From a virus (Duplodnaviria > Caudoviricetes), in IMG/VR virus record IMGVR_UViG_3300005764_000016, positions 4,393-68,392 of that record: a stretch of 64,000 nucleotides of DNA. One strand, written 5' to 3'. The position numbers and the translations under genes are program-made. The notes below the pieces were generated by a model. It saw nothing but the letters and a program-made list of their open reading frames with translations, searched no databases and had not been told where the DNA came from. Positions 50,153-56,114 of the stretch are shown here, piece after piece (position 1 is the first letter of the stretch; each line of letters begins with the position of its first letter).

Positions 50153-50338
50153 TCACTTCGGGGCCAGCCGCGCCTCGGCGGCCGGCAACAGCTCCTCGCG
50201 CATGATCTTGACGTGCGGCGCCGCCTCGAATCCCAGGCGGACCCTGCCGCATTCCTGATGGACCAGCAAAATCCAGATCATTTCCTCGCCCACCTGCAGG
50301 CGGACGGCCTCGCCGGTCCTTCGCGTGAGTACCAACAT
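50153..50338 (-). CDS. csrA: CsrA-family RNA-binding protein
   Basis: MLVLTRR.GE.V...VRLGFEAAPHVKIMREEL. Confidence 0.85.
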   Translation of the reverse strand: MLVLTRRTGEAVRLQVGEEMIWILLVHQECGRVRLGFEAAPHVKIMREELLPAAEARLAPK

Positions 50339-50378
50339 GGTCGCGAGTCCTTTCTGCTGACATGGTGGCGAGTCCAGG

Positions 50379-50576
50379 TCAGGGTTTGTACGTGCCCGAG
50401 CCGCTGTTGAGCGCTTCGCCAAGTGCCTGGTTGACAGCACTCGACCCATTGAGCCAGGCCACGCGCTTCGCGGCCTCTTCTCGTGTCGAGTGATCGCTGT
50501 CGGTCCACCACTTGCCGGCGGGATCGTAATAGCCGACCGTCCAGCAGCCCGGATCGGTGCGTTTGTAAACCCACAT
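50379..50576 (-). CDS. Small conserved phage protein
   Basis: WTVGYYDPAGKW..A.RV..LNG. Confidence 0.6.
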   Translation of the reverse strand: MWVYKRTDPGCWTVGYYDPAGKWWTDSDHSTREEAAKRVAWLNGSSAVNQALGEALNSGSGTYKP

Positions 50577-51115: not shown

Positions 51116-51205
51116 GATGATGCCTCCTGCCTGACGGGATGGGATTGCCACGCCCTACATTCTAAGCACGTTGCGTCTTTGCGTCAATGTGCGTTAGACG
51201 CAAAT

Positions 51206-51233
51206 TGACATTTATGGACCACTGGCTATAATC
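51206..51233 (+). promoter_or_regulatory. Rightward sigma70 promoter
   Basis: TTGACA-N16-TATAAT. Confidence 0.65.
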
Positions 51234-51538: not shown

Positions 51539-51823
51539 TCAGGTCGGCCCGTTCAGGTGCAGGCCGAAGCGCTCGAGCGTCTGCCGCGTGTGCTGCCGCC
51601 GCGACCGCTGCTCGGCGAAGGTCTCGGGATGCGCGGCGGCCTCCACGGGCACGAACAGGGCCCCCAGGTCGGCCCGGCTGACGTAGAGTCGGCCCACGCG
51701 CTTCCAGGCGGCCAGCTGGCCCTTGCGAATCCAGTTGTAGACGGTGTCGATCGTGACTTGGGCGTGGCGGGCGGCCTGGGCCACGGGGATCAGGTCGTCG
51801 GGCAGCTCGGGTGGCGCGTCCAC
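51539..51823 (-). CDS. Excisionase-like HTH_17 protein
   Basis: IPVAQAA..VTIDTVYNWIRKGQL.A..VG. Confidence 0.75.
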   Translation of the reverse strand: MDAPPELPDDLIPVAQAARHAQVTIDTVYNWIRKGQLAAWKRVGRLYVSRADLGALFVPVEAAAHPETFAEQRSRRQHTRQTLERFGLHLNGPT

Positions 51824-51970
51824 GGTGCGTTACCTCCTCGGGGCGGCGAGCCGTCTTATCTACGCCCGGCCCCATGTGACCTGCAAGGGGCAAATGTGAC
51901 ATGGAATCTGACGGTCACTTTTGACCGGAGTGTCCCTGCTCGTGACAGGTCACTTTTCCAGGCGGCCAAT

Positions 51971-52156
51971 GAGCCGTGGAGTGCGAGCGAACCGTGGAAG
52001 ATGAGCGCAGCCGTTTCAAGGGAGAGAACCGTAAGAAGGGAGCGCAGCCGATCGCCGGGAGCGAACCGAAATGGTTGAGCGCAGCCGAAATTCGAGAGCG
52101 AACCGAGGAAGTCGAGCGCAGCCATACGACCAGAGTGAACCGAGCGCTACGAGCGC
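51971..52156 (+). repeat. TIGR-like dual-repeat array 4 (5 units, plus strand)
   Basis: GAGCGAACC/GAGCGCAGCC alternating with 9-nt spacers, opposite orientation to arrays 1-3. Confidence 0.9.
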
Positions 52157-52158
52157 CC

Positions 52159-52524
52159 TTACGACTTGTAATAGCCGTCGGCCCCGCGCAGGAGCACCGG
52201 CGGATCGTGCCGGCACAGGGCCCGCAGGGCGGCGTAAAAGTGACTGTCCAGCCGCTTCCCCAGCTTGTGGGCGATGACCTTGGCCGGCCGCGGATCGCGT
52301 CCGACGGCACCCAGGATGCGCCGCTGCAGGCCCTTGAGGCGCACGGACGGGGCCTGGGGTTTCTGGTCGAGTGCCGTCGCCGGGACGTAGTAGACCAGCC
52401 GCGCCCGCGCGTCGTGCGGGTCGCGGATCGTCACCTGGATCATCGAGCGCGGCCCGTGGGCCGACTCGAAGGCGCGCTGGGCTTCCTTCAACCACGGGGC
52501 GACGATTCTCGGTGCTGACGTCAC
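52159..52524 (-). CDS. Hypothetical protein with C-terminal winged-helix character
   Basis: 121 aa; its stop abuts the 3' end of array 4. Confidence 0.5.
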   Translation of the reverse strand: MTSAPRIVAPWLKEAQRAFESAHGPRSMIQVTIRDPHDARARLVYYVPATALDQKPQAPSVRLKGLQRRILGAVGRDPRPAKVIAHKLGKRLDSHFYAALRALCRHDPPVLLRGADGYYKS

Positions 52525-52721
52525 GACCGCCTCCGGTTAGGGTGTCGTTCCACGCGGAGCCGTGTGGTGCAAGCCGAGGAGTTCCTTCTCAACAGAGATT
52601 GTAAACGTCGGTCGGCGGAACGCCGACCGTCAGAAATGCTCGCGAGCCGCGACGGGATCGAGTCACCCCTGGGCTCGCGAGCGCCACTCGGTGGTGGGCT
52701 AGAGCCGCGAGGGAATCGTAA

Positions 52722-52834
52722 ATCCTACGGGAGTTTATAACGTTGTCAAAGCATTTCTAATTTTTAATCTTTTCCCACCCTCACAGTGCCGTTATGCGGA
52801 GTAGCCTTGTCAACTTGGGATAGCTGGTTATACT
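52722..52834. promoter_or_regulatory. Divergent promoter pair
   Basis: Leftward TTGACA-N16-TAGGAT (52749-52722); rightward TTGTCA-N16-TATACT (52807-52834). Confidence 0.5.
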
Positions 52835-54801: not shown

Positions 54802-54890
54802 TCTAGTGCTCTCGGCCAACAAGCGCCAGGTCGCCTTGCGGCTTGATCGAGCGTCGGCGCTCGCCATGGCGCAGCGCATCCTCGACGAAC

Positions 54891-54962
54891 TAGCCCCGGC
54901 CGGAGTCGAACCGACATCCTCCGCTTAGAAGGCGGTTGCTCTGTCCGTTGAGCTACGGGGCC
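54891..54962 (-). tRNA. tRNA-Arg(UCU)
   Basis: GGCCCCG-TA-GCTC..GAGC-A-ACCGC-CTTCTAA-GCGGA..GTCGG-TTCGACT-CCGGC-CGGGGCT-A folds as a cloverleaf; no encoded CCA. Confidence 0.9.
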
Positions 54963-54968
54963 ACACGA

Positions 54969-56114
54969 TCATCCCGTCTCGCCGACGGCCGCCGCCGCGG
55001 CCTCCCAGTTCTCGATGGCGTAGCCCTGCGTTACCCGCAGGCTTCTTTGCCCCAGGATCACCCGCGCCGTGTCGAGGCCGTACTTGGCCGCGAGCCGCGT
55101 CCCCGCGTTGTGCCGCAGTTGGCCCGGGTTCCACTCGGCCACGCCGGCGACGTGGCAGGCCCGGTGCACGGCGGCCAGGAGCGCCGTGCGGTTGTAGCGG
55201 GCCGCCTTCGGCTTGCCCCGGCCGCCGCGCTCGGGCCGGAACAGGTACTCGCCCGGCTTGGCCAGGAGCAGCCACGGGGCGAGCGTGGCTTGGGCCTCGG
55301 GGCCCACGAGCACCGTGCGCGGATGGCCCTTCCAGAGCGTCTTGTGCTGGGGCGGCCGGTAGGCCCAGACTTTCTTGAAGTTGACCCACATGCCCTTGGC
55401 GATCTCCACCCGGCCTTTCTTGTCCAGGGCCTCGGCCTTCAGGCGGCAGATCTCGCCGGGACGGGCGCTGGTGAGCAGGAGTAAATCCACGATCGCCCGC
55501 ACGGGCGCGGGCGACAGGTGCGGCAGCGTGGCCTCCAGGTCTCCTTCGGGAACGGGTAACACGGGGGGACTCTCCTCGACTTGGTGCTCGCGAACCTTGA
55601 GCCCGCGCACCGTGCGCAGGGTCTCGAACGTGCCGCCCGGCACGAGCTGCTCGGCCTCGCCCCAGCGGAAGATGGTGCGGACGCGCACCAGCTGGCGGTT
55701 GATGCTGGCCCGCTTCCACTGGCGCTTGACCATGGCCCGCAGCACGTCCTTTAAGGCCTTGGGGCCGAAGGCGGCCAGCGGAGTCGCTTGGTGGACGTCG
55801 AGCAAGGGCTGGCAGGCACAGCGGTAGTTGACGAACTCGGTGCTTGGATTTCCGCGCTCGTCGCGGTAGGCTTCGTGGGCGTGCTCCATGAAGGCGGCGA
55901 CCAGGTCGGCCACGCAAAGGCCCGTTCCCGCGTCGGCCTTGACGCCAGCTGAGCGATCGGGGGCCAGTTCGGTTACCAGCCTGGCGTACTTGAGCCGGGC
56001 TTCCTGCGAGCCGATCGGACCCAGGTAGTAGTCGTGGCCGGCGACGCGGATGAATTCGCGGCCCGACGTTTTGTGAGGGTGGACGGTGGGCGGCCACTTG
56101 ACCTTGCGTCCCAT
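54969..56114 (-). CDS. int: Tyrosine integrase
   Basis: SARPGEI (R), QHKT (K), GQLRHNAG (RH), GYA (Y); N-terminal arm-binding domain. Confidence 0.92.
   Translation of the reverse strand: MGRKVKWPPTVHPHKTSGREFIRVAGHDYYLGPIGSQEARLKYARLVTELAPDRSAGVKADAGTGLCVADLVAAFMEHAHEAYRDERGNPSTEFVNYRCACQPLLDVHQATPLAAFGPKALKDVLRAMVKRQWKRASINRQLVRVRTIFRWGEAEQLVPGGTFETLRTVRGLKVREHQVEESPPVLPVPEGDLEATLPHLSPAPVRAIVDLLLLTSARPGEICRLKAEALDKKGRVEIAKGMWVNFKKVWAYRPPQHKTLWKGHPRTVLVGPEAQATLAPWLLLAKPGEYLFRPERGGRGKPKAARYNRTALLAAVHRACHVAGVAEWNPGQLRHNAGTRLAAKYGLDTARVILGQRSLRVTQGYAIENWEAAAAAVGETG

Follow-up and report, generated by a model that had tools for sequence, protein, structure and literature searches.

An inverted dual-repeat TIGR array in the lysis–lysogeny control region of a temperate soil phage with a TasA-like protein

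Can a guide-RNA array serve a Tas protein whose gene lies 37 kb away on the opposite strand, and if so, from which promoter would it be read? This question is raised by an array within the lysis–lysogeny control region of a phage, placed between two minus-strand early genes. TIGR-Tas systems, described in 2025, are RNA-guided DNA-binding systems, and their dual-repeat arrays (Faure et al. 2025, PMC12045711) consist of two alternating repeats of 8–12 nt, with a pair of short spacers in every unit, conserved motifs on either side of each spacer and truncated edges at both ends (PMC12045711). The published surveys covered approximately 5 kb around tas (PMC12045711; TIGRFinder survey, bioRxiv 10.64898/2026.09.09.750476), and the natural role of phage TIGR-TasA, the growth of the arrays and their control are stated as open questions (PMC12045711, discussion). 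A literature search for remote or inverted TIGR arrays returned no paper.

The stretch of DNA analyzed (the window) comprises 64,000 nt, namely bases 4393–68392 of the 68,392-bp IMG/VR record IMGVR_UViG_3300005764_000016, and all coordinates refer to the window unless marked as genome coordinates. The record originates from soil metagenomes with an estimated completeness of 94%, and the phage was present in five soil DNA runs from three studies. The phage is temperate. Its tyrosine integrase gene (54969–56114, minus strand) adjoins a complete tRNA-Arg(TCT) gene (54890–54963), and the 3' part of the latter (54921–54963) showed very high depth and recurred in many unrelated contigs of the same soil runs, as would be expected of an attachment core within a tRNA gene. 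Nearly all genes of the record, including all lytic genes, are encoded on the minus strand, while the few plus-strand genes are small regulators beside the integrase and the tRNA-Arg attachment region.

Anatomy and copying history of the arrays

The array in question, designated array 4, occupies 51971–52158 on the plus strand. Each of its units is composed of an 11-nt edge repeat (GAGCGCAGCCG), an 8-nt spacer A, a 10-nt loop repeat (GAGCGAACCG) and an 8-nt spacer B, which gives a period of 37. Tandem Repeats Finder (TRF) called a period-37 array at 51985–52123, and reading from edge to edge yielded five units. The initial annotation had likewise counted five plus-strand units that end against the stop of the convergent gene, and both points were confirmed, as the array directly abuts the TTA at 52159–52161, the stop codon of a convergent 121-aa gene. 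A search for the pattern of loop, eight arbitrary nucleotides and edge returned 22 matches in the window against 0 expected, four on the plus strand in array 4 and 18 on the minus strand in three arrays. Both edge and loop begin with GAG and end with CCG, so that the motifs flanking every spacer are identical and resemble boxes C and D; in the published TasR arrays, the flanking motifs are CCA and UG (PMC12045711). The ends are truncated on both sides, as is typical for TIGR arrays: the first edge (51971–51976) is reduced to GAGCCG by an internal 5-nt deletion, and the last (52151–52157) is shortened at its 3' end to GAGCGCC, a terminus common to phage G001, which is described below. The number of mismatches per repeat was 0.33, compared with 0.14–0.47 in the remaining arrays. 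With alternating repeats, short variable spacers and units close to the usual 36 nt, array 4 is confirmed as a genuine dual-repeat TIGR (tigRNA) array, whose repeat family is common to the other five arrays of the phage. An Rfam search over the array gave no match.

In the CC(R) before and GAG after each spacer, the two short spacers, the truncated edges and the presence of a phage-borne Nop-only Tas, the locus is like dual-repeat TIGR-TasA systems. It differs from them by its location, since arrays are expected beside tas and on the tas strand, and array 4 lies 37 kb away, opposite in strand to tas and to both flanking genes. Furthermore, no terminator-like site was found 3' of the array on the plus strand (downstream fold z = +1.66), although a rho-independent terminator is usual, if not obligatory, for such arrays, and the array is only one of six that are scattered over the genome.

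The description of the locus as a fourth array on the opposite strand is correct within the window, and the plus strand was confirmed; the whole record, however, holds six arrays, two of which precede the window, with a total of 38 units and 76 spacers. Array 4 is the only one of the six on the plus strand. Array 0 (genome 3–364) runs off the start of the contig and lies in the 4.4 kb before the window (loci L001–L007), together with a further array with the same repeats as the others (genome 2786–2900). Within the window, array 1 (13732–14030) begins at the tas stop codon, downstream of tas, and is closed by a strong terminator, a hairpin of −36.5 kcal/mol followed by U5. Array 2 (14958–15096) lies upstream of tas, and array 3 (31176–31518) fills the junction of two late genes. 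The minus-strand arrays often fit exactly between genes (14029–14031, 31176–31185, 31523–31525; genome 2786–2900): the first edge is truncated to TAGCCG and so contains the TAG stop of the upstream gene, while the start of the following gene falls within the last edge or immediately behind it. A TAGCCG start is also seen in phage G001 (15300–15380).

Array 4 and array 0 share one complete unit, another spacer A and, in the adjoining unit, the rare loop variant GAGAGAACCG, so that three identical spacers link the two. Across all 76 spacers, eight identical pairs were found, a number reached in none of 2000 column shuffles. A metagenome contig of array 0 aligns in reversed orientation to 51984–52067 with 11 differences. 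Judged from these shared stretches, array 4 is an inverted partial copy of array 0, or array 0 was copied from array 4. An 85-nt block common to both contains seven differences, every one of them in a spacer, while its 53 repeat positions are identical (P = 0.0007), which is moderate evidence that the repeats of array 4 have been maintained, although homogenization between the arrays could produce the same spacer-confined pattern. Across the six arrays, a number of spacer A sequences are found again next to another spacer B, and there are families of near-identical spacers (e.g., 13929–13965 compared with 13743–13779, and 31223–31333). The shared spacers show that the arrays arose by copying from one another, and the reuse suggests that recombination at the repeats also gave half-guides new partners; the reuse of spacer A and the near-identical spacers alternatively suggest guides that track variant alleles of one target. 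The proposal in the initial annotation that the arrays spread on their own therefore stands with regard to duplication, but autonomous mobility is an overstatement. In the soil metagenome contigs over array 4, no junction indicating an inversion of the array was observed.

The Tas protein and the sense strand of the arrays

The record encodes a single tas gene (14032–14928, minus strand), which is flanked by arrays 1 and 2 and has its own promoter and terminator; as assumed before, one Tas would serve the arrays. Its 298-aa product, P0001, contains a Nop/IS110-type RNA-binding domain (Pfam PF02371, 22.2 bits against a cut-off of 21.3). A profile built from P0001 and 28 homologues matched TasR (9mty) with E = 9.5e-22, TasH with 7.6e-11 and the IS621 recombinase with 5.7e-6. 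The match to TasR starts at profile position 40 and at residue 123 of TasR, after the nuclease domain of the latter, and Pfam found no nuclease family (HNH, RuvC) in P0001. By these profile comparisons, P0001 is a Nop-only, TasA-like protein, and TasA proteins are RNA-guided repressors (bioRxiv 10.64898/2026.09.09.750476). The family comprises more than 2,900 relatives, the closest of which has approximately 60% identity; a close relative of this tas was found neither in IMG/VR with a single-sequence search nor among GenBank phages.

A known system with a similar guide format is the array of SpTasH from Salicola phage CGphi29 (PMC12045711, PMC13421893), which also has 8-nt spacers and a combined guide of 16 nt, with a period of 36 compared with 37 here. 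SpTasH carries an HNH nuclease, which P0001 lacks, and it processes its own precursor via a C-terminal Tyr/His pair (Y289 and H296). Candidates for such a pair in P0001 are Y267, H275 and H277 (each at least 90% conserved in 29 homologues), which lie in the tail that was aligned to TasR.

To assign the sense strand, 80 IMG/VR loci encoding relatives of P0001 were each oriented with tas on the plus strand. In 63 of the 80, it was the tas strand on which the arrays showed the order GAG..CC(A/G)-spacer, and by this rule the sense strand is plus for array 4 and minus for the other five. The opposite strand was used in a single locus (L024), where the arrays have different repeats and run along with the local genes: approximately 35 units opposite to the tas strand (L024:485–3007, minus strand) are interleaved with small genes and may belong to a second TIGR system. 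In ten whole related records, a generic array pattern gave 499 matches on the tas strand and none on the opposite one. An array antisense to tas and to its two neighbor genes is hence unusual. Dispersal as such is not unique to this phage, as two related records (G007 and G008) spread many arrays over more than 10 kb.

Exact scans for the repeats in genome and metagenome collections returned only chance single matches in coding DNA, and, in addition, phage G001 (IMG/VR, locus L009); no further record with these repeats was found. G001 shares the edge and loop consensus, and its array starts at the tas stop and ends with GAGCGCC. Unlike in the phage studied here, this array (G001:C1:11554–15303, minus strand) is a single one with approximately 100 units, directly after tas and entirely on the tas strand, and G001 has no synteny to the control region. 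Two relatives found through TerL carry no arrays, and relatives of the 121-aa protein were not detected beyond copies of the studied phage.

Promoters and repeated sites around array 4

Within the genome, eight sites match the sigma-70 consensus in at least 10 of 12 positions, all of them intergenic, and they include two divergent pairs near array 4. The first pair consists of 51187–51159 on the minus strand, which reads Gp157, a CsrA-like gene and DnaB, and 51205–51232 on the plus strand. The latter (TTGACA-16-TATAAT) is the only 12/12 match of the genome, lies 734 nt upstream of array 4 on the same strand and is directed toward an 85-aa ORF (P0122; 51276–51533, plus strand) and the array. 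P0122 is probably a ribbon-helix-helix (RHH) DNA-binding protein, an assignment that we treat as a lead, as it is derived from language-model features and the shape of a structural model, with no match in Pfam. Three copies of TTGCGTC, two direct and one inverted, are located at 51165–51205, where they run into the −35 hexamers of both divergent promoters (51187 and 51205); this is likely an operator set, with the RHH-like protein possibly as its ligand. The CsrA-like protein (PF02599, E = 7e-11; 50153–50449, minus strand) is a phage-encoded member of the early operon.

The second pair consists of 52749–52722 on the minus strand and 52807–52834 on the plus strand (10/12 each). From the latter, a small ORF, an HTH_3 regulator and three further genes are read. 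The former precedes the 121-aa gene (52159–52524, minus strand, no assigned family) as the first gene of a predicted transcript that continues antisense through array 4 into an HTH_17 gene (excisionase/MerR-like, 94 aa; 51539–51823, minus strand), which is divergent from the array and carries GGAGG before its GTG start. For this HTH_17 gene, no promoter-like site of its own was found, so that the flanking minus-strand genes are probably connected by read-through across array 4 in the antisense direction. The 121-aa gene has a long 5' leader with a GC-rich hairpin at 52600–52636, and this hairpin has the 9-mer CTGACGGTC in common with the site at 51907–51915. As the promoters at 51205 (plus) and 52749 (minus) converge, array 4 sits between two strong opposed promoters that are 1.5 kb apart. 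On the plus strand, no canonical terminator-like site was predicted from 51232 to the array.

The space between the HTH_17 gene and array 4 is occupied by a cluster of repeated sites (51874–51957), with ATGTGAC at 51874 and 51894, GGTCACTTTT at 51913 and 51948, and a total of five GTGAC/GTCAC cores. The five cores are packed into 78 bp, and the genome has no second cluster of this kind (P about 0.0015). The motif GTCACTTTT occurs in four copies in the window compared with 0.27 expected, and none of 100 shuffles reached four. Two of the copies stand before array 4, and a third is inverted at 52236–52244 in the 121-aa gene. The fourth (13647–13655, minus strand) comes after the array 1 terminator, approximately 50 nt before the start of a 1100-aa head gene. 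The motif is absent from G001. The clustering of the sites is real and non-random; ATGTGAC by itself was discarded as an enriched word, with four occurrences against 3.7 expected. The inverted copy forms, as 52236–52248 together with 51910–51922, a 13-nt inverted repeat that brackets array 4. An invertible segment with these boundaries was considered and rejected, with no supporting junction and with one arm inside a gene.

The sites are thus present where they had been reported, and they are clustered, but their assignment to the array is only one of several readings, as the divergent HTH_17 gene has them upstream to the same extent. In a related soil contig, the tail-to-tail pairing of the RHH-like and HTH_17 genes is kept, and the spacer before HTH_17 measures 156 nt compared with 335 nt here (a comparison of predicted genes). 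Because the difference corresponds approximately to the length of the array, it suggests that the site region is older than array 4. For the plus strand of the site region, folding predicts a long hairpin with UUUU behind it (−43.8 kcal/mol, z = −2.75); the closing stem of this hairpin pairs the first ATGTGACCTG with CAGGTCAC; hairpin and U4 end at 51957 and could attenuate read-through just ahead of the array. The minus strand folds about equally well, as expected of palindromic operator DNA.

Independent regulation had also been proposed in the initial annotation, and this part follows from the architecture: array 4 is alone on the plus strand and the others belong to minus-strand operons, so that it shares no transcript with them. 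The further suggestion was expression in the lysogen. In its strictest form, a private promoter with operators in the 140-nt leader would make array 4 specific to the lysogen and provide the prophage with a guide set for immunity or host-gene silencing. We consider this unlikely. The site cluster is indeed unique in the genome, and a weak candidate promoter at 51942–51970 (plus strand; GTGACA, 17 nt, GCCAAT; 8/12) lies below the threshold of a standard scan, with its GTGACA, part of two of the sites, matching the −35 hexamer in five of six positions and its predicted start falling at the first spacer. The plus-strand genes are a few small regulators near the integrase and tRNA-Arg, with the lytic genes all on minus, and tas, which resembles a moron in having a promoter and a terminator to itself, might be expressed in a lysogen. 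However, the candidate −10 hexamer is poor, the sites are placed just as well for the HTH_17 gene, the 156-nt spacer of the related contig is about what the site region would measure minus the array, and the motif is missing from G001, which has the same repeats. A promoter of the lambda P_RE type, dependent on an activator, was also considered for the leader and became less likely once the consensus promoter upstream had been found. Consensus-strength promoters of temperate phages are mostly early lytic. Regarding lysogenic expression in general, the small plus-strand regulators near the integrase argue for it, while the consensus strength of the 51205 promoter argues rather for early lytic transcription.

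The explanation we favor, and to which we assign slightly better than even chances, is that array 4 is a working array that serves TasA, that its plus-strand transcript stems mainly from read-through of the 51205 promoter and is gated by the GTGAC/GTCAC cluster, and that its guides block sites in DNA. A sense pre-tigRNA could only arise from plus-strand promoters, and read-through from 51205 would be the most likely source, possibly with a contribution of the weak local promoter. The GTGAC/GTCAC cluster ahead of the array would control this transcription, being an operator or, alternatively, the hairpin-U4 attenuator. Cleavage by TasA inside the edge repeats would then release 37-nt guides from the transcript, in line with the published cutting of the precursor within edges by dual-repeat Tas (PMC13421893; bioRxiv 10.64898/2026.09.09.750476). 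The two 8-nt spacers of each guide would pair with opposite strands of a 16-bp site, where TasA would block transcription without cutting. The sequence itself establishes the anatomy, orientation and duplication history of array 4, its intact repeats, the promoter map and the TasA family of P0001. We infer that the array is transcribed in sense, that the transcript is processed and gated at the site cluster, and that targets are repressed.

Several points stand against this explanation. Array 4 has no terminator, unlike array 1 and the published norm, and the hairpin with U4 that ends at 51957 could stop read-through before the array is reached. Between the RHH-like ORF and the array, 430 nt of untranslated RNA, antisense to HTH_17, would be open to Rho action. 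The candidate for a local promoter matches poorly (8/12), and any sense transcript would probably run into the early transcript of the minus strand. Array 4 is also partly redundant, as one of its guides is present in array 0 as well, and none of the guides yielded a target in the DNA searched. The geometry used in these searches, a 16-bp site in which spacer A is joined to spacer B in reverse complement, was deduced from the 8-nt 3' overhangs of TasR. Arranged as A+rc(B) or rc(A)+B, the guides matched the phage itself no better than control arrangements did, and neither the comparison of this phage with G001 in both directions nor 1.17 Mb of other phage DNA gave targets above controls.

Part of the same evidence would be explained if array 4 were an inert scar, i.e., an inverted recombination duplicate within the 335-nt intercistronic spacer of an operon of the 121-aa and HTH_17 genes, transcribed in antisense only and producing no guides. 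The near absence of opposite-strand arrays in the relatives (1/80 loci; 0 against 499 matches in ten whole records) fits such an origin, as do the missing terminator, the lack of a strong local promoter, the damaged first edge and the likely antisense read-through into the HTH_17 gene, for which no minus-strand promoter was found. We nevertheless doubt it, as the repeats are no more degraded than in the arrays adjacent to tas, with the divergence from array 0 confined to spacers, the ends on both sides are canonical, and a consensus promoter faces the array. A functional antisense RNA is a further alternative, which would pair with the pre-tigRNA of array 0 and time or dampen its guides. The transcript would be perfectly complementary to one unit of array 0 over 48 nt, and over 84 nt with 11 mismatches, and minus-strand read-through is likely. 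However, this mode of action would be purely conjectural and without precedent in the TIGR literature examined, and the antisense strand has no special structure (z = 0.15), so that we regard it as very improbable.

Implications for phage TIGR-TasA systems

Face-to-face promoters are well-known switch elements in temperate phages: in coliphage 186, pR and pL face each other, and lambda P_RE reads antisense through cro. The position of array 4 resembles these switches, as it lies in the overlap of two strong promoters that face each other across small regulator genes at a distance of 1.5 kb. We know of no guide-RNA array within such a zone. Beyond the working array favored above, array 4 could be part of the lysis–lysogeny switch itself, being made together with the RHH-like regulator from 51205 only while the opposing early promoter is shut; we offer this extension tentatively and consider it improbable.

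Phage-borne TIGR-TasA was known already. The value of the phage is limited in that it is known from soil metagenomes alone, without an assigned host or targets. It nonetheless provides a compact test case, with one TasA and 38 guides at six places, five arrays within lytic operons and a sixth, inverted, in the control region, and with clear traces of half-guides copied and newly paired between arrays. Surveys limited to the neighborhood of tas miss most guides of such a phage. If the inverted array is state-specific, RNA-guided repression would be tied to the lysis–lysogeny decision. If the reading as a switch is true, the prophage would gain guides specific to its state, through which TasA could silence genes of the host or rival phages, and this would be a first natural case in which convergent transcription couples the output of TIGR guides to a phage decision circuit.
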